DNA of 63,694 nt, counting the filler, from Chrysochromulina tobinii (lineage: Eukaryota): the NCBI GenBank assembly GCA_001275005.1. It is 8 parts of 8 records of this genome, joined end to end, with 100 filler letters (N's around TTAATTAATTAA, not from the genome) between each part and the next. Parts side by side here need not be neighbours in the genome. Positions count along the whole stretch, not along the records: positions 1 to 10,571 come from JWZX01000625.1; 7 more parts are not named here. One strand, given 5' to 3'. The notes under the pieces were generated by a model. It saw only the letters and a program-made list of their open reading frames with translations, had not been told where the DNA came from and did not search any database. Within the stretch, counting starts at the first letter, position 1. Each line of letters opens with the position of its first letter. Shown piece by piece: positions 1 to 56,670 of this stretch. The translations under genes and the position numbers were made by a program.

Positions 1-493
1 CGCGGCCAGCGAGTCCCCTGCTGTCTCGGTGAGCGGCTGGCACACGCGCTCGCACACGTCCTCAGTCGTTGCATCGACGAGCAGCGCGCCTCATGAAAGG
101 TGGGGTTGGGTGGGTAGTCGCCGCAGTCCCCCACGCGGATGCAGGGGCCGCTCGCAAGTGGCACGCAAGGGCTCATGTCCGTGCGCACGACGAGCCGCGT
201 GTCGTGTGACAGCGACGCGAGCGCGAGGGAGACTCGTGTTTCACTCGAGTCATCATCGACAGCAGGATCGTGCGATATTCTGCACAGATAATGCATGCAA
301 CATTGTCGTATCTCACGAATGTGGCCCTGCCGTCGACGCCCAACTCAACCCAAATTTGCATGCAAATTTGCGCTCTTGAAATTTTTGCATGCTAAATAAG
401 TTGAGCAAACGCAATCTGACACTTCTTGGAACGCTATTGGAGTGCAGTCGCTGGCCTTCAGCTCCGCGTCCGTGTCGGTGGAGTTTTGTCAGT

Positions 494-3400
494 ATGCCCG
501 ATGACGTCGGCGACACGGTTATGACCGTGGTGCCCTCGCCAATGACCTCGCCGCTGATCTCGCCGACGTCCACCCTCGCCCCTGACCTCGCCGTCGACCC
601 GCCCTCGCCGCTGATCTCGCCGGCGCTCAAGCTCACCTCTCCGACCTCGCCGCTGATCTCGCCGGCGCTCAAGCTCACCTCTCCGATGCTCAGTCCGAGC
701 TCGCCGCCCAAGGGCTTCATCCTCCGCAGCCCGGCCTTGCTCACGGTGGAGGAGGCTGAGACCGGCCTTCGGGCGATCGAGCAGCACACGCAGGAGATGG
801 AGGCGCTGCTGCTCATCGTGCAGCGCCTGCACGAGGAGCTGCTCGCGACGCGGGCGGGCCTGCTCAAGAAGCACGAGGACCTGATCGCGCAGCAGCTCTC
901 CCATCGACGCAAGCGCCATGACGAGGATGGTCTAAGCGTGCGCAACTCGCCCAAGACCGTCCAGGTAGAGAAGGTGGAGAGCAGCACGCCCCCATCGGAT
1001 TGCATGCTGATTGCATGCTGATTGTGTCCCTCATCAGGTAGAGAAGGTGGAGAGCAGCACCGCTCCGTCCTCACCGACCAACAGCAACGGCAGTGCAGCG
1101 TTCGGTTTGACGAACCCGAATTCGGCGCGGAGCACGCCGCAAGTCAGCCCGGACCGTCCGCTGCGCGCCGCGAAGCCTCAACTGTCCACCAGCGCCATCT
1201 CGGATCTCACCTCCCGAGATCTCACCTCCCGAGATCTCACCTCCCGCAACCTCACCTCCCGAGATCTCACCTCCCGCAACCCGACGTTTGATCGGGAGGT
1301 GTACGATTGGGTGTGCGAGATCACCAAGCTGTCGGACGTGAGCACGCGCGGGTGGCGCGTGTGCTACAGCGAGCGCTTCCTTGGCTCGATCAGCGAGTAC
1401 GTGTCGGATTGCATGCTGATTGCCCTCCTCATCAGCTGATTGCCTTCCTCATCAGCGAGCGCTTCCTTGGCTCGATCAGCGAGTACGTGTCGGATTGCAT
1501 GCTGATTGCCCTCCTCATCAGCTGAATGCATGCTGACGAGAAGCGCTACGTGCTCGGCTCGGAGCTCTGATGACGTCTAATGACCTCTGATGACCGCTGA
1601 TGACCTCTGATTGCCTCCCTCATCAGGTACGAGAAGCGTTACGTCCTCGGCTCGGAGCCGTTGACGAACCCGTTGACGAACCCTGGCGGGCTGCCGCCCT
1701 CGGTCGCGCCCTCGTTGACGAACCCGTTGACGAACCCTGGCGGGCTGCCGCCCTCGGTCGCGCCCTCGTTGCGAAGAAACGTGAGCCTTGATGAGGAGGA
1801 AGATGAGGACGGGGAGGTGGACGAAGAGATGGAAGGGGACGAGCGCAAGAAGCAGGAGCGCATGGAGCGCCGTCCCGAGCGCACCATCGACCTCGGGACC
1901 GCCGCCGCGCCTCGCTCGCCCAATGCGGCCACCGAGGACGGCCCAGGTGTGCTGATTGCATGCTGATTGCATGCTGATTGCATGCTGATTGCATGTCGAT
2001 TGCATGCTGATTGCATGTCGAGTGCATGTCGAGTGCATGCTGATTGCAATGCGGCCACCGAGGACGGCCCAGGTACCCCAATCGATGGCATGCTGATTGC
2101 ATGCTGATTGCCTCCCTCATCAGGTACCCCTATCGATGGGTGGGACGGCGCCGTCGTGGCAGTGCTCGGGCTCTTCGACAAAGGGAAGACGTTCGTTCTC
2201 AACCACCTGACGGACTCGCGGCTGCCCAGCGGCAAGAAGGTGCCGATTGCATGCTGATTGCCTCCCTCATCACCTGACGGACTCGCGGCTGCCCAGCGGC
2301 AAGAAGGTGTCGATTGCATGCCGATTGCATGCTGATTGCATGACGAGTACATGCCGATTGCATGCTGATTGCATGCTGATTGCCTCCCTCATCAGGTGTC
2401 GACCAAGGGCCTCTCCTTCAAGCACGTCGACGTCGATGGCACCAAGTTCATCGTGCTCGATTCGGAAGGCTCGTATGCGCCGGTCAAGGTGCTCATTGAT
2501 TGCTAATAGCTGATTGATGGCTGATTGATTGCTGATTAATCGGAGGGCTCGTATGCGCCCGTCAAGGTGGAGAAGGAGCTCTCGGTCGTCGGATTGCATG
2601 CGGATTGCATGTGGATTGCATGTTGATTGCATGCTGATTGCATGTCGATTGCGTCCCTCATCAGGTGGAGAATGAGCTCTCGGTCATCGAGAAGGAGATC
2701 TCGGAGCGCTTCATCCAGGACGTCATCTTCGACCTATCCGACTACTTTTTGTGCGTCGTCAACGACTTCACCTCGCTGATTGCATCGGATTACCTCTGAT
2801 TGCCTCTGATTGCGATGGATTGCCACCGATCGACTGCAGGTGCGTCGTCAACGACTTCACCTCGCTCGACCAGCGCTATCTGGACCAGCTCACGCGCTCG
2901 CTCCAGAACTCAAAGAAGCATTTTCAAGAGGTGATCGTGGTGCACAACTGCAAGACGGTCATGGAGCAGGAGGTGATGGACCACATCTTCCACAGCCAGA
3001 TCTGGGCGATCATTGCATGATTGCATGCTGATTGCATGCTGATTGCGTCCCTCATCAGGTGATGGATCACATCTTCCACAGCCAGATCCTCTACGTGTAC
3101 GGCCAGGGCAAGGCGCAGACCACACGCATCGCCGCGCCCAACCCCAAGACGGGCGAGCTCGAGGCCAAGGACGTTCTCTGGTTCAAGACTGACTTCAGCC
3201 GGCATGTAATCCTCCGCCAACGAGGACTGTGATTGCATGCTGATTGCATGCTGATTGCGTCCCTCATCAAGACTGACTTCAGCCGGCATGTAATCCTCCG
3301 CCAACGAGGACTGTGATTGCATTCTGATTGCATTCTGATTGCGTCCCTCATCAGGTGATCCTCGCCAATGAGGACTGTGATTTGGGCGACCGGACCAACA

Positions 3401-5649
3401 ACTGGACCTTTGCCCTGCTCAAGAACTGGCTGCGCTCCGCCTTCGTGCCCGTCAACCGCCGCTTCTCCGTCCTGCAATCGGTGCTGCAGAGCTGCAACGG
3501 GCGGCTCTCGGCCTCGCATGCTGATTGCATGCTGATTGCATGCTGATTGCATGCCGTTGCATGCTGATTGCATGGTGGGGCGGCTCGGCCAAAGGGGCGC
3601 CATGCTGATTGCATCCGCCATGCTGATTGCATGCGGATTGCATGCTGATTGCATGCTGATTGCATCCGCCATACTCGACCAAAGGTGCGCCATGCTGTAG
3701 CATCCGCCATGCCGATTGCATCCCTCATTGCATGCAGGCGCGATGCTTCATGCTGATTGCATCCCTCATTGCATGCAGGCGCGATGCTTCGTGCTGATTG
3801 CATCCCTAATTGCATGCCGGCGCGTTGCTTCGTGCTGATTGCATCCCTCATTTCATGCAGGCGCGTTGCTTCGTGCTGATTGCATCCCTCATTGCATGCA
3901 GGCGCAATGCTTCGTCGCGGCGTGACCCAGGCCTCCCTGGCGGCGTCGGTGAACGCGCACCTTCAGAGCCTCCTCGGCCACGCCAAGGCATGCGAGTGCG
4001 TCTTCCTCGACAATACGCTCCACATGCTGAGCAACGCCGAGTTGGTCGAGCTCCATAGCTGCCCTCACTGTGGGGAACCGTCGGGGGAGCTCGAACCGAA
4101 GACGTTTGATTACCCCCCCCCCTCCCCCCCAACCTGAGGACGTCTGATTACCCCCCTCATCAGGTGGGGAGCCTTCAGGGGAGCTCGGAAGGGTGCTTGC
4201 CGCCTTCGACCATTGATTGCCATTGATTGCCATTGATTGCCGCTAATGGCCTGCCTGATTGCACCCCTCATCAGGTGCTTGCCGCCTTCGACCAGTCGAT
4301 GGAGACGATCCGCAGCGCCGTGGTGGGCAGCCCGCCCTTCTGGCTGAGGCACATTGCGTCGACGCTCGCCGCCCGGGATGTCGGCCGAGATTGCCTCGAG
4401 CGCGAGCAGGTGAGAGATCGCACCCAGATTGCATCTCCGAAGGCCCTCCTCACCCCGAGATCATGTCGCTCTTGTGCAGGCGGCGATCGCCCAGGGCGAC
4501 GCGGCAATCATCGCGTTTACGGACGCTTGGGGCGGCGAAGGCGCTGTGGTGGTAACGGTTGATGCGCCAACGGCTCTCGAGGCCATGATTGCATCCCTCA
4601 TCAGGTGGCCGAGGTAGCCATGATTGCATCCCTCATCAGGTGGCGGTCGATGCGCCAACGGCTCTCGAGGCGCGCGTGCATGCGGCCATTGACGCGGCAC
4701 GGCGCCGTCTCGAGCACTTTCTGGCGGGCAAGACTCGTCCCGATTTGGAACATGTCGAGGCGGAGGTGCTCGAGACGGCGCCTGCTGAGCTTCGATTGTC
4801 GCCCTCATTTTCCATTGATTGCCGCTAATGGCCTGCCTGATTGCACCCCTCATCAGGTGCTCGAGCGCTTCGATTGTCGGGTGGCCGAGGTAGCCATGAT
4901 TGCATCCCGACTGCCTCCCTCATTGCATGCTGATGACCCTCCCTCATTGCATGCTGATGACCCTCCCTCATTGCATGCTGATGACCCTCCCTCATTGCAT
5001 GCTGATGACCCTCTCTCATTGCATCCCGACTGCCTCCCTCATTGCATGCACTCATATGGCTGCTCTGAGTGCTTCTCTGAGTGCTTCTCTGAGTGCATCT
5101 GAGTGCCCTCCCGATTGCGCCCCTCATCAGGTGGCCCAGCGCTGCCTCACTCGCAATAAGATGGGTGCCGCGTCCGCCAACCGCTCGCTTCGCATGGAGC
5201 TTGTTCGTGGGTACAACGAGAGGATCCGAGTTGAACTTGCGGCGGCGGCCGCCACTGTTGCAGGCGCGGGCGGCGGCGGCGGCGGGGGCGGCGACGGCAG
5301 CGGCGGCGGCGGCGGCGGCGGCGGCAGCAGCGCGGCGGCGCGAGCTCGCTTCGATGCGATTCGTGACGAATTCGGGCCGTTGGTGCGCCTCTACCTGTCG
5401 CGCTGTCAGGGCGGGGCGCTGTCGTGGGCGCCATTCGTGCTGCTCCAGGAGCAGCTTCGGATGGAGCAAGTCAATGCGCGCGAGAAGCTGCTGCGAGACG
5501 ATCTCGTCGCGGGCAGATCGCTCCCGCCCGTGTCGGAGCCGGTCAAGGACGCGGTGGCGCTAGCGAGGCTCTGTGGGGAAAGCGCCGTGCCCGCCTGGCT
5601 GCGCGAAATGGGAGCCGAGCCTCGGAACGCGGCGTCGAGCCTTGGATGA
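494..5649 (+). CDS. Multi-exon P-loop GTPase (GBP/atlastin/dynamin-like superfamily) with coiled-coil, low-complexity N-terminus; about 16 exons
   Basis: Hand splicing at GT..AG (965-1037, 1397-1626, 1947-2123, 2240-2395, 2489-2664, 2751-2839, 2973-3058, 3206-3354, ~3510-3901 unresolved, 4070-4163, 4193-4274, 4410-4479, 4552-4639, 4766-4856, 4881-5130) keeps the frame. It gives VVAVLGLFDKGKT (G1), STKGL (G2), FIVLDSEG (G3) and IVVHN (G4). Start ATG 494 is assumed. Confidence 0.8.
604..1770 (+). repeat. In-frame exonic tandem repeats in the GTPase N-terminus: 42 bp x2 (~604-686), 15 bp x5 (~1203-1277), 54 bp x2 (~1660-1770)
   Basis: SPLISPALKLTSPT, (D/N)LTSR and LTNPLTNPGGLPPSVAPS units are visible at DNA and protein level. 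Confidence 0.85.
965..5130 (+). repeat. Intronic (GCATGCTGATT)n-type satellite, usually ending in a CCCTCATCAG acceptor module
   Basis: The 11-nt unit and variants fill nearly every intron of the GTPase gene and most end in ccctcatcAG. Confidence 0.9.
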
Positions 5650-31877: not shown

Positions 31878-34800
31878 AGCTGGGGGACGAGCCGAGCTTG
31901 AAGGGCGTGTCCGAGGAAGACGTCGCTAAGGCGCTTGCGGGCATTGTGCAGCGCTCGTGGGCAGCCGATCAGGACGGCGCCGGCACGACGACCAGCACGG
32001 CGCCGGGAGATGCGGCGGGCGAGCGCGAGCGCGGCTGGTGGTACGGGCGGCACGCTCTCGACATGGCGATGCGAGTGCCACTCACCGAGTCGGAAAAGCG
32101 CGAGTCGGCGCTCGCGAGAGCGCTCCAGCTCGAGGAGAGCGTCTCTCCTCCAATGGAGGCTTCGTCACACGCGCAGCCCAACGGCGACTGCGGCGGCGGC
32201 GGCTGCTGTGCGGAGCGCAAGCTGAGTTTAGTCCCTGGCTGGTCCAGCATTGTCTTCAGCGTCCAGAATTGGGGCTCGTTCTTGGAGCCGGGCGTCTTCG
32301 ATGTGGCGCACGAGCCTGCCCCTTCACCTGAGGGCGCACCTGCTGCTATGGAGACGCGTGACGCGGAGCTCGCAAGCAGCTACTCCGAGCGGTATGCACT
32401 GGCTGCGAGCAGCGTACAGAGCTTCTGCGGCACGATCCGAGATTGGTTTGCGCCCACGAAGTATGTGGCCTCGACGGCCTTCGTTACCTTCCGCTACGCT
32501 GCGGATGCCGACGAGGCGGTTCGTGCCATCGGCCGACTGCGTCGGGCGCCGTGCCGCCGCGTCTGCAGCGTCATCATTGAGCCCATTCGGCGGTGTATCT
32601 GCGGTGCTCAGACGAGCTTCCACGGATTGCACGCGCGCCGCGCCCCCGAGGTGGACGACGTGATTTGGAAGAACCTGTGGCACGACACGTGGATGCGTCG
32701 GCACGTGCGCCCGCTCGCAAGCAACGCCTTCTACATCAGCTGCTGCACCATCTTCTTCATGTTCATCCTCTCGATGACGCATGCAAAGCTCTCCCTCGCC
32801 ATGGGGGTCGGCCTCGACGAGACCTTCTCTGACGACACCGACCCATCGGTCTATGACGAAGCCGTGCTCTGGATCTTTGAGACTCTCGGGCTGGGATACC
32901 TCGACGAGCAGTGGGTGCTCGTCACGGCGCTCTTCTTCTCGCTGCTCATCAAGATCCTCAACGATCTCCTGCTGAGCCCGTACATTGTCAACCTCGTCCC
33001 CAATCCGCTGCGCGGCGCGGAGTGGATGGTTCGTAAAGAGCGCCTGCCCTCGGCCTCGCGCGAGCAGCTGCGCCTGATGACGCTGATTACGGTCGTCTAC
33101 ATCACCAACTACGTGATTGTGCTCTTCATCGCGCACACGCCGCTCGCTCAGCGGCACGAGACGCTCGTCTCGCTGCTCAAGCAGCGCACGGGCGCGCGGG
33201 CGAATGACCTCGACCAATCTCGGCTCTACATGACCGACTTCCTCTCGGGCTGTTTCGATCAAGTCAACGAGCACATGTGGATGGCAGTACGCCCACCGCT
33301 CTGCCATGCGAATGGATGAGATGAATGCCGTCCCTCCTTGCACGCTGATGACCGCTGAGTGCCTCCCTTCTCAGGTACCTGGTCGCCTCTCTTGATGACC
33401 CCTAATTGCCTCCCTCCTCAGGTACCGATGCTCCTCGTGCTCCAGGGCCTACTCAGCCTGCTCGACGTGCCGCAGATCGTGCAGGACGTCTTCGGGCGCG
33501 TCGTGTCGGGCGTCACACTCGTGCTGACCCTCGTGTACAGCTACGCCTACTTTTGCTGGAATCTGCGCTCCTTCACACACGACTCCCTGTTCCTCGAAAA
33601 GGAAGACGAGTGCAATCCGCAGTCGCTCGTGCGGGCATGGAGGAGCTTCCAGATCGTCCTGCAAGACGACATACGATTCATCGCCGATCACGCCGCAAAT
33701 GACACGTGGTACACTGGCGCGACCGGCCTGATCCCGACGATGATCATCCTGCTCGTGCTCGAGGTCGCGTATGGGCCGTTACTTGAGGATGGCATCACCT
33801 TCGTCACCATGCGCCTCGAGCGTCTACTCTCGCGCAGGCATACCAGCCAGGAGGCCATCAACAAGGCTTTCGAGCCGCCCGAGTTTGCCTTCGCCTACCG
33901 GTACGCCTCGTGCCTCAAGATTGCGGCGATCGTGCTCGTCTTCGCACCGGCGGCGCCGATTCTCTATTTCGTGGGCACGGCCGTAGTGGCCACGTCCTTT
34001 GCCATCCAGAAGCTCGCGCTCGTCAAAATGTACCGGCGGCCGCGCGCCCTCGATGCGTCCCTGGCCGAGCGATCGCGCACCGTTCTCTACCTGCTCCTCG
34101 TGCTCAAGACGCTCGCAGCGTGCCTCTTCCAGGCAAGGGCCTCTGATGGCCTCTGATGGCCTCTGATGGCCTCTGATGGCCTCAAGACACTCACGGCGTG
34201 ATGTCCTCAAGACACTCACAGCGTGTCTCCTTTGCAGGTGCGCCAGGCACTCGTGGCGCAGAGCGTCAATGGCTCTGATCTGGACCTCGTCGAGGACAGG
34301 TGCGCCTGATTGCCTCTGATCGCCTCTGATCGCCTCTGATCGCCTCTGATCGCCTCTGATCGCCTCTGATCGCCTCTGATCGCCTCTGATCGCCTCTGAT
34401 CGCCTCTGATCGCCTCTTGTTTGGATCCCTCGAGGACAGTGTGCCGCTCATCATCGCGATCGTGGCCGTCATCATCTACGGCGCCGTTGACTTTGGCGTC
34501 GCGCCGTGTCTCAAGGGCTTCGGACGCTCAATCGGCACGTCGGAGGGGGAGGAGAAGCAGATGCGCTACATGCAGGCGCGTGCGAGGATCCCCCTGGCTT
34601 TGTGATTGCCCACCCTCGATGCATGCTGATGACCGCTGATGACGTCCGTACATGCAGGCGTGCGAGGAGCTCCCTGGGTTTGCGCCGTACGCACCCGACG
34701 AGGGCTCAGGTGTACACCTCAAGTCAACGTCCCGCAGGGCATGGGGCAGCGCTACCCGCGCCCTACTCCGTAGTAGCTCCTTGACGAGCCGACGTGGGGG

Positions 34801-36257: not shown

Positions 36258-38807
36258 CTACAGCTCCAACTCAAATCCACTCCGGTCCTTCACTGCATCT
36301 CGCAGTGTTTGTTTCCCTGCATCTCCCATGTTGCTGTTGTACTTGAGGTCGAGCTTGGTCAGGACCGCATTGACCTTCAGCGCCTCCGCGATCGCCTTGG
36401 CACCCTCTGGACCGATGCTGTTCCCGTACAGGTCCAGGGTGGTCACGACCGCGTTGACCTTCAGCGCCTCCGCGATTGCCTTGGCACCCTCATCCCCGAT
36501 GTTGTTGCCCCAGATGACCAGTTTGGTCAGGACCGCGTTGACCTTCAGCGCCTCCGCAATCGCGATGGCACCCCTATTCCGGATGTTGTTGCCTGCGAGG
36601 CCGAGGGCGGTCAGCACCGCGTTGACCTTCAGCGCCTCGGCGATCGCGATGGCACCGTTAACCCCGATCATGTTATTGTACAGGCCCAGGGTGGTCACGA
36701 CCGCGTTGACCTGCAGCGCCTCCGCGATCGCCTTGGCACCATCGTCGCCGATGGAGTTGAGCTGGAGGTCCACCGAGGTCAACACCGCGTTGACCTTCAG
36801 CGCCTCCGCAATCACGATGGCACCCTCATCCCCGATGGAGTTGTTCCCGAGGTAGAGGGTGGTCATCACCGCGTTGACCTTCAGCGCCTCAGCGATTGCC
36901 TTGGCACCCTCCGCACCGATGTTGTTGTTGTCCAGGCGCAGGTCGGTCAAGACCGCGTTGTCCTTCAGCGCCTCAGCTATCGCGATGGCACCCTCCGGAC
37001 CGATGTTGTTGCCCCCGAGCATGAGCTCGGTCAGGACCGCGCTGAACTTAATCAGCTCAGCAAGCACGATGCACTCGGTCAGCCCTAGGCCCTTGCCCTG
37101 CCGGTCGAGCTTTGTCAGCTTGCCCGCGCGCAGCTCCTTGATTGGCACCCCAGAGAGCACCTCGAGCGACAAGCTGCCCAATGCTGCCGCCGCAAGCTGC
37201 TGCGCCGCCTCTCCGACAATGTTGCTGTTGTAGGCGACGGAGAGATTTTTCATCACCGCGTTGACCTTCAATGCCTCCGCGATCGCGATGGCACCCTCTG
37301 GACCGATGTTGTTGTTCTCGAGGTCGAGGGTGGTCACAACCGCGTTGACCTTCAGCGCCTCCGCGATCGCGATGGCACCCTTATCCCCGATGCTGTTGCT
37401 TCCGAGGTCGAGGATGGTCACCACCGCGTTGACCTTCAACGCCTCCGCGATCGCGATGGCACCCTCTGGTCCGATGTTGTTCTGGTTCAGGCCCAGGGTG
37501 GTCACGACCGCCATGAACTTCAGGTCAGACGCGATCAGGATGGCGTCGGCGGGTTGTAGGCTCTGGCCCGGGAAGTTGGCCACCGTCTGGTCGCGCGTCA
37601 TGCCCGAGAGCATGATTCCCTTCTCCGCGCCCATCTTGGCGAGCTTCTTGGCTGACTCAACGTCGAAGCTGTTCTTGAGCAAGTTGCAGCGCCTGAGCAC
37701 CGACGTAGCAGGAATGAGATAGGCGACAAGCATGGCCGCAGGCACGTGGAGCCCCCTATTGGACAAGTTGAGCACCTGGACCCTGTCCTCGCGCAGTCGC
37801 TGCACCGGAATGCCGCAAATGACTCCTGAGCCCGCACAGGCAACGGCTGCGATCGTCAGCCTCAACGGTGGCTCTCCCTCGCCTGAGATGCAGCTGTTGA
37901 GAGCAACCTCATAAGCACCATGTAGCAATGAAGGGCGGCGCGAGTTGCCCATCTCGCATTGCAGATCCGCAGCCCGAACGGCGGCCACGTCCACCACATG
38001 GCCGTAGCCATGGAGGCGCGCAAGCCCAGGCAGCATCCGCCCCCCAACGGCCGCGTCCCCGGGCCGGCCAGCCTCGATGAGCTGCTCCACGTCGAGGTCG
38101 GTGATCTCATCCAGACGTGTGGGTCCTGGCTGTCCGTCGCGGCGGCACAGGCGCGAGCAGAGGACACGTTGCGCCAGCGCCCGCCAAGATCGAGTCACGC
38201 CCTTGAGCTCGGCCAACGTGGCCACGTCCACCAGGCCCAGAGCAGCCTCCATGGCGTCCGCCGAGAACGAGGGCTGCTGCAGCGGCTCAGGCGGTAACGT
38301 GGAGCAGGCCGGCTGCTGCGGCGCCTCAACGTCTTCCGGTACGAATGCCGGCTCGGCGTTTGGTGGCGCGTGCTCCTCCGCACTACCAAAGTCACCAGCC
38401 GCGCCGATGAGCGCGCAGAGTTCGGGAGCGCGCTTGCCGTTGAGTCGGGAGGCGATCGCACGCTGGATGTGCTTGAGCGCGATGGGGGCGTCGAGATAGA
38501 GGGCGTCCTCGATGAGCTGGATGAGCTGGAAGAGCGAATGCTCGTCAGAGCTCGGCCACGTGTAGCCTGGGTCGTTCAGCTTGCACACCATCTGAAGCGT
38601 CGAGGCCATGATCGTGGGCATGGGATAGATGCCATCCTCGGAAGTGGCGAGATCCATCAGATCCTTCAAGGTGCCCATGAGTCGGGCTGCATCGCGCGAC
38701 AACGTGACCTCCTCTCCGTCTCGCGCTCGCACGCGTATTTGCTCCTCGTGTTTGGCCTTCTTCGCCGTGGGCGCCTCTTCCTGCTCCTCGACCGACGGCG
38801 CGCGCAT
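36258..38807 (-). CDS. Skp1-like domain + F-box-like motif + NLRC3/ribonuclease-inhibitor-type LRR array
   Basis: IRVRARDGEEVTLSRDAARLMGTLKDLMD...LIQLIEDALYLD...IASRLNGKRAPEL...DF (Skp1); ADAMEAALGLVDVATLAELKGVTRSWRALA (F-box); 28-aa LxxLxLxxNxIGxEGAxAIAEALKVN repeats. Confidence 0.85.
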   Translation of the reverse strand: MRAPSVEEQEEAPTAKKAKHEEQIRVRARDGEEVTLSRDAARLMGTLKDLMDLATSEDGIYPMPTIMASTLQMVCKLNDPGYTWPSSDEHSLFQLIQLIEDALYLDAPIALKHIQRAIASRLNGKRAPELCALIGAAGDFGSAEEHAPPNAEPAFVPEDVEAPQQPACSTLPPEPLQQPSFSADAMEAALGLVDVATLAELKGVTRSWRALAQRVLCSRLCRRDGQPGPTRLDEITDLDVEQLIEAGRPGDAAVGGRMLPGLARLHGYGHVVDVAAVRAADLQCEMGNSRRPSLLHGAYEVALNSCISGEGEPPLRLTIAAVACAGSGVICGIPVQRLREDRVQVLNLSNRGLHVPAAMLVAYLIPATSVLRRCNLLKNSFDVESAKKLAKMGAEKGIMLSGMTRDQTVANFPGQSLQPADAILIASDLKFMAVVTTLGLNQNNIGPEGAIAIAEALKVNAVVTILDLGSNSIGDKGAIAIAEALKVNAVVTTLDLENNNIGPEGAIAIAEALKVNAVMKNLSVAYNSNIVGEAAQQLAAAALGSLSLEVLSGVPIKELRAGKLTKLDRQGKGLGLTECIVLAELIKFSAVLTELMLGGNNIGPEGAIAIAEALKDNAVLTDLRLDNNNIGAEGAKAIAEALKVNAVMTTLYLGNNSIGDEGAIVIAEALKVNAVLTSVDLQLNSIGDDGAKAIAEALQVNAVVTTLGLYNNMIGVNGAIAIAEALKVNAVLTALGLAGNNIRNRGAIAIAEALKVNAVLTKLVIWGNNIGDEGAKAIAEALKVNAVVTTLDLYGNSIGPEGAKAIAEALKVNAVLTKLDLKYNSNMGDAGKQTLRDAVKDRSGFELEL

Positions 38808-43249: not shown

Positions 43250-45284
43250 TTATCCACGTGGTCCCGAGCAGTTGAACGCCCACCACCACTGTTTGGTTAG
43301 GCGCGGCGTCCAGCATGCGGCGCTTGAGCACTTCTCCATCCACGTGGCGGCGCCGCGCTCGCTCAGCCACCTGATTAGGGTTTGCTATTAGGGAGGCCAT
43401 CAGAGAGGCCATCAGAGAGGCCATCAGAGAGGCCATCAGAGAGGCCATCAGAGAGGCCATCAGAGAGGCCATCAGAGAGGCCATCAGAGAGACGATCCGT
43501 GGTAACCAATCGGATAACCAATCGAGGTACCATACTCAGGAGCAATCAGCGTACGTACCGCGTCAGATTGAGCTTGAAGAATCGGGATGAGCGCGGAGGT
43601 CGGCCCCAGCCGAGGCTCTGGTTGTGGTCATGGCTGAGCATGCGCATGCGCATGTTGCGACGAAACGGAAAGCTGCCAGCGCGACCCATATTAGGCAGGC
43701 TGCCGTTGAGCCGCAGCAGCTGCTGTCGTCGGCTGACGAACCCGGGAATCTCCAAGGGCTTCGGCGTGGCCGGGAGAGAGGCCAAACCGTCACCAGCAGC
43801 ACTGGCACTTCTGCCGTCATCATGGGCACCGCCAACACCGTAACCAACATCGTTGGCGGCTTTCGGGGCGCCATGGTGGGCGCCCGCCACAGAACCGACG
43901 CGTACGAGAGGGGCCGCGCCCGATGCAACGCTCGGGACGGCGCTCGAGGCGAGCCAATTATAGATGAGGGTGGACCACGTGTCGACGGGCCCCGGCATGC
44001 AGTAGTGCAGGCAGTCCTCCTTGACCTTGCCCGCATCCCCCCAGAAGCGTGCCATGGCCGCGTCTGGTCGCATGGCCGACGGCGCCGCGATGTCCAGGTA
44101 ATGGATGCCCGCGCCGCGCGCGACGTACCTGATTAGGGACGTCACCAGAGGTCATCAGAGGTCATCAGAGTTCATCAGAGACATATCAGAGACAATCAAT
44201 CCATCAGGAGAGGCCAGCCAGAGCGCCGTGTCGAGCGCATGGCACGTACGAGGCCGCCACGTTGAGACGGGCGTACGAGAGCCACATGGGGCTGTCGATG
44301 GTGCGCCTGTGCTCGTAGTGGGAGGTGGCGTACTGGGCGAGGCTGATGGGTGCACGGAAGCGTGAGCAGCCCGCGACTGGCGACGAGATCCCGACAAGCA
44401 GTATGGACGCCGCCGCGTCCGCGTGTCCATACGCCTCGCGCGCGGCAATGAGGTGCGTGAGCGTGTGGTTCAGGCTGAAGGGAAGGAAGGCATTGTACTG
44501 CAGCCGCGCGCGTAGGGGCGCTCTCTTGGCGCCGCTCGGACCTCCCTGGTAGTCTAGAGCCATGTCGAGGCTGCCCGTGAAGTGATGGCCAACCCCCAGC
44601 ACGACGATGTCGGCATCTCGGGCGGCGCGCACGGCGAAGTTCTGCAGGCTCAGGACGCCGTCAGAATGCACTTAGCATGCACTCAGGGGAGCACTCAGGG
44701 CATACATGTATACGTCACCCGAAGAGCAGGGACGCAATCAGCATGCACTCAGGGCGCGTCACCTGCATGCTCAGGAAGCCGTCGCATCGCTTGGCGCTCA
44801 TGAGGTCACCCACGTTGCTCGTGTAGAGCACCAGGTCATTGCGCACAAACGCCAGGCGCGTCGCGTCGCCGCAGGCCGAGGCCGTGATCTCGGACACGGT
44901 TGACGCCTTCTTCACATTCTTGCCGAGCTGTGCTCCCAGCAGGAGCGCGAACGACAACCACAGTTGAAAGACCGTCGAATCGCCTACCATCAGAAGTGAC
45001 TTACCGCGAAGCACCTCGCACACGCCTTGGACGCTGAACTGGTCGAGCCGGCACCGATGCGGCTGCCATTCGTAGAGGATACGGTTGGGAGTCACCCTGT
45101 CGCATCGACCGTAGTTTTGGGGCGTTGTGCTCTTGATGGTCGTCCCGAGCTGCTCCCAAAAGTGTGCAAGGATTTTGTAGCGGTGGTGGGTAAACGGGAC
45201 CCAGTCGCCGTCCGTGTAGTCGTGCGTGGGCGTGCCAGGCGACGAGAAGCAGCGTCCGCGCTGTTGGGCCGCGGTTAAAGCCAT
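43250..45284 (-). CDS. Trichome-birefringence-like / PC-esterase (SGNH polysaccharide O-acetyltransferase-like), 3 introns
   Basis: GDWV, YEWQPHRCRL, LRGKSLLMVGDST, DIVVLGVGHH, DCLHYCMPGPVDTW. Introns 44642-44762, 44129-44249 and 43371-43558 keep the frame to TAA at 43250. Confidence 0.87.
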
Positions 45285-54657: not shown

Positions 54658-56670
54658 ATGGCAAACGTGCCTTCGCCGGCCGACGCGCTCGCACTCTTCG
54701 CGCGCTCGATGAAACTCTGCGCCAAGGTGCCGGCCCAGCACGACGCCGTGCGGGAAGCGGGCGCGTTGCTACCGCTGGTCGCGTTGCTCCGCAGCTCGAC
54801 GTTCGGGGGTGAGACTGCAGAGGAGGCGCGCATGGATGCGCTCGAGGCCCTGTGCGATCTCACGGTGTGCTCGGCCATGAATATGCGCGCCGTCCGTGAT
54901 GAGCTCGCTGAGGCACTCGTGCCGCTCCTGGGCCACGCGCCCCTAGCGCCGGAGCTGTTGTGCATCCTGGCCAGGAGCGGGCGCCGTGGCCAGGAGCTCA
55001 TCCGCGAGGCGCACGGAGTGCAACCGCTCGTTCAGCTGCTCGCCCAGCTCACCGACGCCGGCGCCGGCGCCGGTGGTTCCGCCTCCGCGGCTGCGGCGGG
55101 CGCGCCCAGCAGTGCAGCCGCCGGCGCTGTCGCCGGCGCCGGCGGACCCGCGGCGGCCGGTGCGCCGCTGTCCTCCGGCGCCGGCTCGGCGTTCATAAGC
55201 GCCGCCGCCGCCGCCGCCGCCGCCGCAGACAGCCCTCCGCCGCTGATGCTGCCGACACTGCGGCAGGACCTGAGCGCCGACGAGGCGGCGCTACTTCCTC
55301 GCGTGCTGCGGGCGGTGGCCGCGCTCGCAGCGGGCGATGCCGCGAACCAGGCAGAGCTGCGCGAGGCAGGCGCCATTCCTCTGCTGGTCGTGCAGCTCGA
55401 CAGCCCCGTTGAGGCCAGCCCCGAGGCCGCCGCCGGCGGCGGCGGCTCGGCGCATCAAGTCACGACGGCGTCGCGCTCGTCGTCTTCCCAGCAGCTCGCG
55501 TGCCCCGTCCCTTCGGTCGCAAGTACGTTCGGCTTGCCGCCGCCGCCGTGCGCGGCGCTCTTGCATGCAGGTGCTCACCACAGCGCGGCGCTCGCGGCCG
55601 CCGCGCTCGCCGAGCTCGCTGCCGAGAAGGACTGCTGCGACGCCATCTACGAGGCAGACGGTCTCCGGCGACTAGTAGCCCTGCTCTCGGCGGAGGAAGC
55701 GTCGGTGGCGGCTGAGGCGGCTCATGCCTTGCGCTCGGTCGCGTTCCGATCGGCGGTCGATCGCGACACGATCCGTGAGAAAGGCGGCATCCCGCCGCTC
55801 GTCGAGTTGCTCCGATGCGGCGCGCACACGCCGCAGGCCGCGTGGGCCGCTGGAGCGCTCCGACACCTCGGGTACTCTGATTGCCACTGATGGCCTGCCT
55901 TGCATGCAAGTGCTCAACACAGCGCGCACCGGCACCTCGGGGTACACGAACGAGGCCGTTGATTGCCGCGGATGACCTGCCTTGCATGCCCGTGCTCACC
56001 ACGGCGCCTCCTCCCCACAGGTACACGAACGAGGCCAACCGGGACGCGATCCGCGAGGCAGGCGCGATCCCCTTGCTCCTCGGACTGCTCGACCAGGTAC
56101 GCTGATGGCCACGGATGGCCTGCCTTGCATGCACGTGCTCACCACAGCGCGACCCCGTTGCTCCTCGGGTTGTGCTTGACCAGGGCGCGCCCAAGGCGGA
56201 GGAGGATGCGGCTGGCGCGCTCTGGAACCTGACTGAGCTCTCGAGCGCCAACTGCGCCGCGCTGCTCGAGGCGAACGGCGTGCGCTTGCTGCTCGGTCTC
56301 ATCCAACGCGAAGCCCTCTCGTCGCGCGGCGCCGCCTTCGTGCCGCTCGAGACGGCGCCGGAACCCTTGTGGCGCCTCGCCGAGAATGCCCTCGTCAACC
56401 TTGTCGAGGCGCCGCCCTCGGCGCCCGTCCTCATGCCCACCCGCGAGCGACTGCGGCTGAACCACGCGGCCGTGCGGCTGAACCACGCGGCGGCGGCCGC
56501 CTCGGACACAGCCGTGGGGGACGGAGGTGCTCGGGACGGCGCCGGTGCGGACGGAGGTGCTCGCGACGGCGCCGACTCGAGCTCAGAGGGGGGGGCGCAA
56601 GTGCACCCGGCGCCTGCTGTGGCCCCAGCCCCGTCGGCGCTAGTCGGCGCAAGCAGCAGCAGCGGCGGCG

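Follow-up and report, generated by a model that had tools for sequence, protein, structure and literature searches.

The window examined here is a 63,694-nucleotide (nt) stretch of DNA from Chrysochromulina tobinii, made up of eight contigs joined by N-TTAATTAATTAA-N linkers, and its first contig (positions 1-10571) carries a series of predicted introns at 494-5649, many of which hold partial copies of the neighbouring exons. DNA of the window was present in 12 mixed-culture DNA runs (76-79% of sampled words), and DNA and RNA runs were compared as assembled contigs. An earlier first-pass annotation of this DNA had marked out the interval 1537..4585; this interval covers two genes, split after 3550. 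Contigs L008 and L009 match the window base for base up to 3550 but diverge from there, and L004 and L007, the close haplotypes compared with L008, likewise continue differently. The break after base 3550 sits within (GATTGCATGCT)3, three units of an 11-nt repeat. The end of the L008 version is the region that forms an HSP20 domain in the paralogue (contigs L001-3/5) and in homologues, the best named homologue of this GTPase-HSP20 family being in Prymnesium parvum (58% identity), which marks the organism as a haptophyte. For window 3902-5649 the match is to an AIG1-type GTPase, in its C-terminal half. The window is therefore probably mis-joined between a GTPase-HSP20 gene and an AIG1-type GTPase gene. 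Because the window departs from L008/L009 after 3550, introns 10 and 13 were assigned to the other gene; the mismatch counts given below remain valid, because every copy was scored against its own exon. The 3' part of the true gene, with its further introns, was taken from L008, which gives the 5' gene 12 predicted introns. A single 974-codon, 15-intron open-frame model was dropped, its GC-donor 'intron 9' being the mis-join. The features are as follows.

494-3480, plus strand: 5' part (exons 1-9) of the intron-rich GTPase (MMR_HSR1)-HSP20 gene; true 3' end outside the window, in L008/L009
965-1037, plus strand: intron 1; starts with a 23-nt exact copy of exon 2 (965-987)
1397-1626, plus strand: intron 2; exact junction-spanning copy 1453-1487, and copy 1536-1565 (copy/exon codons cgc/cgt, gtg/gtc)
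1947-2123, plus strand: intron 3; junction-spanning copy 2047-2088 (cca/cct)
2240-2395, plus strand: intron 4; exact junction-spanning copy 2271-2313
2489-2664, plus strand: intron 5; junction-spanning copy 2540-2591 (gag/gaa, ccc/ccg, aag/aat, gtc/atc)
2751-2839, plus strand: intron 6; exact 27-nt copy of the start of exon 7
2973-3058, plus strand: intron 7; 30-nt copy with GAC, as in the exon of haplotype L007 and of the paralogue; 1/86 nt differ from the L007 intron
3206-3354, plus strand: intron 8; tandem duplication of 84 nt, whose copies show gta/gtg, aac/aat and, in common with L004, a 1-nt insertion
3481-3550, plus strand: start of true intron 9; 34-nt copy 3481-3514 (TCG) plus core; exon partner (TCC) in L008
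3511-3901, no strand: repeat tract, probable mis-join to the second gene; last base in common with L008 is 3550
3902-5649, plus strand: 3' half of a different gene, homologous to AIG1-type GTPase (P0096); an RNA contig joins exons 10-14
4070-4163, plus strand: intron 10; 24-nt copy that departs from the exon at three codons, all synonymously (gaa/gag, ccg/cct, tcg/tca)
4193-4274, plus strand: intron 11; exact copy of 20 nt; its final 45 nt and the next 5 nt of exon recur unchanged at intron 14
4552-4639, plus strand: intron 13; 32-nt copy differing by gta/gtg and acg/gcg (donor +3/+4) and by gtt/gtc; the start of intron 15 is also copied within it
4766-4856, plus strand: intron 14; opens with 17 nt that repeat part of exon 14 (4701-4717) perfectly in inverted orientation, followed by a direct copy of 13 nt
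4881-5130, plus strand: intron 15; core of the same family, 24-nt tandem array

The introns follow a recurrent plan. Exon duplicates measure 2-58 nt, with 13-58 nt for the scored copies and 2-29 nt of exact identity at the 5' end. In 12/12 introns the donor dinucleotide repeats the two bases with which the following exon opens, and in true introns 1 and 6-12, which carry long 5' copies, the duplicate of the adjacent exon supplies the donor. In intron 14 of the window, the first 9 nt of the inverted copy also match the start of the following exon. The non-copy remainder is (GATTGCATGCT)n or a 10-nt relative, mostly ending in CCCTCATCAG, and this core brings its own acceptor. Core and acceptor recur in several genes, with the likeness mostly confined to 11-45 nt of the 3' end, and the core is highly abundant in the genome, judged by depth. 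The introns measure 70-250 nt, with variable repeat number and differing 5' halves; near-full-length identity and fixed length are absent. Stacked copy-plus-core units with internal CAG-GT/GC were observed at L008 6145-6301, L004 2864-3055, L007 557-698 and window 4552-4639, and these could undergo recursive splicing with zero-length exons. Scans for the core motif returned 0 stretches in viral contigs and, from prokaryote genomes, one contig that was uninformative; L015, a contig binned with a bacterial genome, ends in the algal intron motif and is probably contamination.

A transposon-type introner, or a retroelement, that produced target duplications of long and variable size and spread between alleles by homing-like drive would account for the common 3' end CCCTCATCAG (CCTCATCAG occurs 16 times, on the sense strand only), the donor co-opted from the duplicate, the abundance of the core, and introns that are more alike between haplotypes than the flanking silent sites. 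However, core length and sequence are variable, the duplications range over 2-58 nt, sometimes derive from the upstream exon and are inverted in one case, no terminal inverted repeats stood at intron ends among the best 25 of 31 inverted pairs, and no unusual fold was seen in the four introns tested (z-scores -0.2 to 0.6). No element or nuclease was found at the locus, and an intron-encoded endonuclease or reverse transcriptase is ruled out by the 70-250 nt length, a factor acting in trans not having been searched for. An element of this kind is accordingly regarded as quite improbable.

From sequence comparison, the predicted introns of the 5' gene are recent gains, absent from the paralogue at every comparable site. 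The paralogue is 86% identical over the alignable part and is contiguous at 11/12 junctions, junction 3 being unaligned and junction 1 weakly aligned. Junctions 4-9, 11 and 12 are likewise uninterrupted in the relatives of genomic length (L010, L013 and L014). L011 and L012 are short and could be transcripts, and contiguity probes of L004 and L007 at the junctions were left unused, being confounded by those haplotypes' own copies. Among the close haplotypes, L008 alone has true introns 9 and 11 (they are missing in L004 and L007) and intron 10 is missing in L004; because the haplotypes differ in their presence or absence, these three introns are taken as recent gains. Introns 9 and 11 contain core that is missing from the intronless alleles L004 and L007, which is more than a local tandem duplication would deliver. 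Lengths vary too: if the haplotypes are conspecific, intron 8 measures 149/86/76 nt and intron 10 measures 89/142/0 nt in L008/L007/L004. Neighbouring introns share private core ends, with 45 nt plus 5 exon bases in common between window introns 11 and 14, and a GATTTCATG core variant in common between L008 introns 11 and 12 that is missing in L004 and L007. The culture also contains the paralogue, at similar depth (31/31 checked variants equal L003), and it is the paralogue that appears in RNA. Intron-rich and intronless versions as diploid alleles were considered and rejected, as the L003 and L008 flanks are unalignable outside repeats.

The first-pass annotation had claimed that the intronic copies differ from their exons almost exclusively at synonymous third positions, and all 16 codon pairs and the 1-nt insertion that it listed were found in the sequence. 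To recount them blind to phase, the 15 window introns were searched against the spliced coding sequence, ungapped and without regard to codons. With a mismatch penalty of 2, this gave 16 mismatches in 455 nt (codon positions 2/0/14, 13 synonymous), and with a penalty of 3 it gave 11 (0/0/11, 10 synonymous). Removal of an off-register match and of a duplicate of aac/aat left 14 unique mismatches, 13 of them at position 3 and 12 synonymous, so that the excess was borne out. The null model first proposed, an absence of codon-phase bias, was too weak, because the exon goes on gaining silent changes after a duplication in cis; a neutral copy facing an exon that accepts only synonymous changes yields 36% synonymous mismatches, and 12/14 departs from that expectation with p about 3e-4. 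Two further routes to the pattern, second-order selection on copies via copy-to-exon conversion and cis conversion alone, were dismissed by reasoning, neither altering the 36% expectation, and translation of the copies through alternative splicing was rejected because there were no matching donor/acceptor pairs. These data indicate that the silent-site bias is real at this locus; introns held out from the count did not show it.

A collapse of two haplotypes in assembly had been named as one of the findings that would overturn the interpretation, and an artefact in which copy and exon come from different haplotypes joined via the repeat core deserved attention, as the window is mis-joined in just such a core at 3550, L004 apparently is too, and one Logan contig skips the 84-nt duplication of intron 8. 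It is nevertheless very unlikely: two other assemblies, L008 and L009, are 100% identical to the window over 1-3550, no second exon allele or exon variant was found at 97% likeness in one DNA run, and at intron 10 the RNA contig that joins exons 10-14 of the second gene has the sequence of the exon, which differs from the copy by three letters. That repeat cores lead to assembly mis-joins in practice is illustrated by the window itself (unrelated genes joined at 3511-3901), and a similar jump occurs in L004 at about 605-690.

The source of the silent differences was then sought among alleles and paralogues, the annotation having proposed either a diverged allele or a paralogue as template. In the true gene, 11/13 mismatches are silent in 511 nt, a proportion of differing silent sites (pS) of about 0.096, which lies between the values for the alleles L004 (0.04) and L007 (0.14), with a similar spectrum (Fisher p=0.57); relative to L008, L007 differs at 26/762 sites (24 silent) and L004 at 5/548 (5 silent). 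The allelic half of the proposal is supported at this locus. The paralogue half is not. Templating by the paralogue gains something from the presence of that 86%-identical gene in the same culture at similar depth, from six copy variants that equal its bases, and from a third related contig at exon 7, but 41/47 paralogue differences within the copied spans are missing from the copies (6/47 carried), no closer paralogue was found at 97% likeness, and the six matching variants are consistent with ancestral states lost by the exon; such an origin is highly improbable. The third contig (window 2879-2939, depth about 56, four variants in common with the paralogue) is probably another paralogue, and protein P0004, though it resembles the paralogue, agrees with the window in its residues at two sites.

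Polarisation by the paralogue placed six changes on the exon side (5 silent) and five on the copy side (4 silent, one at donor +3), with two ambiguous. The copy-derived changes are mainly synonymous (4/5, p=0.01; 3/4, p=0.04, without the donor change), and for neutral copies of equal age the five silent exon changes predict 17 nonsynonymous changes, of which one was observed (P=6e-7; conditional p=0.003). Copies common to L007 and L008 differ at about 1/73 nonsynonymous sites where 10 differences were expected (P=4e-4, sites counted by hand). Independent drift of the copies in cis is thus rejected at this locus. Furthermore, the derived TCG of the intron-9 copy is the exon codon in L007, which is without intron 9, as is L004 (TCC), and within about 450 nt each of the three groupings of L008, L007 and L004 can be seen. 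Of the testable copy variants, 2/6 match L004 or L007 exons. The data favour the view that, for the greater part of the time over which they diverged, the copies were coding sequence on other haplotypes. The idea that introns moved between haplotypes is supported at this locus, given the allele-like level and spectrum, the intron-9 TCG and the likeness of copies between haplotypes; the homing-like drive attached to it is conjectural. The statement that each intron archives another allele was too broad, since 7/15 scored copies of the true gene are mismatch-free and other genes held out from the count showed no bias.

On balance, we lean towards an account in which the predicted introns were recently gained as an exon duplicate plus a repeat core, and the bias arose through recombination or gene conversion pairing a young copy with the exon of another allele. 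At birth, a polymerase engaged in repair or replication would enter the exon from a GT/GC, use microhomology of a few bases to switch to the (GATTGCATGCT)n...CCCTCATCAG end of a different, often neighbouring, intron, copy through the acceptor and then switch back to the start of the exon piece, so that two template switches would duplicate the exon piece around a borrowed intron end. Since the duplicate supplies the donor, the protein would be unchanged after splicing. At 14 copy-to-core junctions, orthologous introns excluded, microhomology averaged 2.6 nt versus 0.9 (p=4e-4). Once formed, the upstream exon together with the 5' copy would resemble an intronless allele, and conversion tracts or crossovers in or beside the repeats would rewrite copy or exon from other coding haplotypes; if such rewriting outpaced neutral mutation in the copy, mismatches would come to resemble allelic polymorphism. 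Template switching and inter-allelic exchange would likely be the processes behind the observed anatomy, the absence from paralogue and relatives, the presence/absence among haplotypes and the bias at the locus.

Several observations weigh against this account. The focal locus was picked because of its pattern, and the bias did not extend beyond it: in a held-out set of six other genes with copies, intron 8 of L004 and L007's own copies, scored by the identical mismatch rule, 8/25 mismatches were synonymous (positions 9/5/11, one mismatch counted twice via a duplicated unit), matching the null (p=0.73) and differing from the focal set (Fisher p=4e-4), with L007's own copies at 1/3. Three of the 16 listed changes (gta/gtg twice, acg/gcg) fall at donor +3/+4, where splice-site selection can explain them. 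Microhomology is at most one base at 6/14 junctions, and the 2/6 matches to other alleles have a chance p of about 0.08, one being merely ancestral. Polarity was set by a paralogue with about 40% silent divergence, and L007 may be a sister lineage rather than a conspecific haplotype. Splicing is backed by RNA solely in the 3' gene (window introns 10-13); for introns 1-8 there was no RNA joint among the matches listed from five RNA runs, although contigs show presence only and not a lack of splicing, and the RNA contigs covering exons 4-9 in those five runs derived from the paralogue. Some of these points would be met by cis duplication with ordinary drift, the excess then being chance at a hand-picked locus together with selection for better donors at +3/+4, and four mismatches of the true gene or window do bring donors nearer the GTACGC-type donors of introns without a long copy. 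However, 13/15 mismatches stay synonymous when donor +1 to +6 are dropped (p=1e-4; the set includes three further same-gene introns from L008), those three introns, which lay outside the first scoring, gave 3/3 synonymous changes with one at donor +4, and the pooled unique mismatches are still 23/41 silent (p=0.007). We therefore consider drift with chance and donor selection unlikely.

The main rival, that exons change faster than the adjoining introns, for example through recombination with error-prone cDNA, so that selection leaves silent changes and the copy is a frozen snapshot, fits other parts of the data. Orthologous introns of L007 and L008 differ little, near background (1/86, 2/64 and 3/74 aligned bases), versus about 14% at adjacent silent sites (exon pS 0.14); 6/11 polarised mismatches are exon-derived; junction-spanning copies resemble spliced sequence; and a tilt towards G/C in the copy versus A/T in the exon (8:3, p=0.11) leans to exon-side change, which again counts against inter-allelic exchange. 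Yet copy-derived changes too are mainly silent, cDNA recombination ought to strip introns whereas introns accumulate here, the version seen in RNA is the intronless paralogue with its low diversity, and 8/29 allele differences are CpG transitions, a count given without a formal enrichment test. Faster exon change is thus judged about as unlikely as drift, if anything a shade more so. A further difficulty for the account based on exchange is that pS at the intronless paralogue locus is just 0.004-0.024 between samples; ordinary genome-wide polymorphism is too low, and this gene therefore needs unusually deep or imported haplotypes. Its extra silent diversity could reflect such haplotypes, a sister lineage or faster exon change. 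The paralogue (L003 5138-7006) was nearly invariant between samples (1-3 differences in 703-1183 nt), while the intron-rich copy (window 494-3480) showed 4-14% silent divergence.

Known systems share single traits with these introns. In the portions of text compared, intron gain by tandem duplication (PMC3265369, PMC4974935; also PMC3443670) is the nearest in that duplicated exon sequence likewise provides the donor and, in a potato case, branch site and acceptor come from the parental intron, as in L008 intron 12; two papers give one case each, whereas here the core of another intron occupies new sites, 12 in one gene, and varies among haplotypes. Stuttering of exon and other sequence on avian dot chromosomes (Hron 2026, PMC12954441) gives repeat-rich, length-variable introns with partial copies of adjacent exons, for which repair or meiotic gene conversion was proposed as cause, and the same traits occur here: partial adjacent-exon copies in repeat-rich introns and, assuming conspecific haplotypes, variable intron length. 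Arrays in birds are much longer, the text examined makes no claim of new intron positions, and 'synonymous' and 'intron gain' have 0 occurrences in it. Introners (Gozashti 2022, PMC9860276; Roy 2020, bioRxiv 10.1101/2020.10.14.339549; Gozashti 2025, PMC12130899) also form families of related new introns, and in Symbiodinium and Polarella classes 4/5 take the 5' site from a target duplication and carry the 3' site; however, as excerpted, their duplications are 3-9 nt and fixed per class, in contrast to 2-58 nt and variable low-complexity cores here, and the introner example in Chrysochromulina has a 4-nt duplication and is of opposite polarity.

Zymoseptoria tritici (Wu 2017, PMC5647799) resembles the present case in presence/absence polymorphism and in exchange of introns between haplotypes by short conversion tracts, but there flanking exon bases travel with the intron and the portion consulted describes no intronic exon copies, whereas here copy and exon are decoupled. 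Gain by double-strand-break repair in Daphnia (PMC3443670) yields new introns with flanking direct repeats, attributed to repair in the part of the paper compared; the repeats are longer here and the filler is the 3' end of another intron. Homing group I/II introns (Repar and Warnecke 2017, PMC5378118) show raised exon diversity near mobile introns, with co-conversion, according to the excerpt, merely reshuffling pre-existing variation; the introns here are spliceosomal-type with no encoded nuclease. In the parts of these sources compared, no case unites exon duplications that are both long and variable with a borrowed core of repeats, numerous gains within a gene and silent differences like those between alleles. 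A literature search found no title or abstract start on such haptophyte introns or on synonymous-biased copies, most subscription journals and the introner supplementary tables, which may list the family, lying outside its range. Introns of Emiliania huxleyi are reportedly rich in 10-11-bp repeats.

Spliceosomal intron birth outside transposon bursts is poorly documented, and the gene, its intronless paralogue and the intron-variable haplotypes together give before and after states for numerous gains, and the scars at the junctions point to how they arose. Should the silent bias stem from inter-allelic exchange, intron copies would mark recombination in algae in which sex is rarely seen; C. 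tobin is described, in the text available, as haploid with meiosis genes and no diploid observed (PMC4580454). A bolder extension, which we hold only as a speculation with the odds against it, is that haptophyte introns breed locally without a transposon, inter-homologue repair synthesis during recombination carrying the 3' end of a neighbouring intron into an exon and pairing one allele's copy (up to about 60 nt) with the other allele's exon; intron-rich genes would then be self-amplifying recombination hot spots with about tenfold the silent diversity of the paralogue, and the copies would record coding alleles and hidden sex.

Related features occur elsewhere. A second core family, CTTGCATGCA.GTGCTCACCAC.GCGC...CCCCACAG, with the same exon-copy anatomy, lies at window 55872-56183, where the host gene resembles an armadillo-repeat protein by eye, and on the minus strand of L008 at about 1250-1520. 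At window 33287-34657 and 43371-44760 (-), introns have 10- and 12-nt repeat cores, and in some of them the acceptor is provided by a terminal duplicate of the end of the upstream exon, the opposite polarity. The intron-rich gene also holds in-frame exon tandem duplications at 1203-1276 (15 nt), 1659-1775 (54 nt) and 599-686 (42 nt), which are missing from the paralogue protein and suggest a general local duplication activity. Window 4250-4861 is free of variants at about twice the DNA depth of the 5' gene, so that this portion of the AIG1-type gene has probably been duplicated recently, and window 36355-37522 (-) holds an 84-nt tandem array resembling 28-residue leucine-rich repeats.

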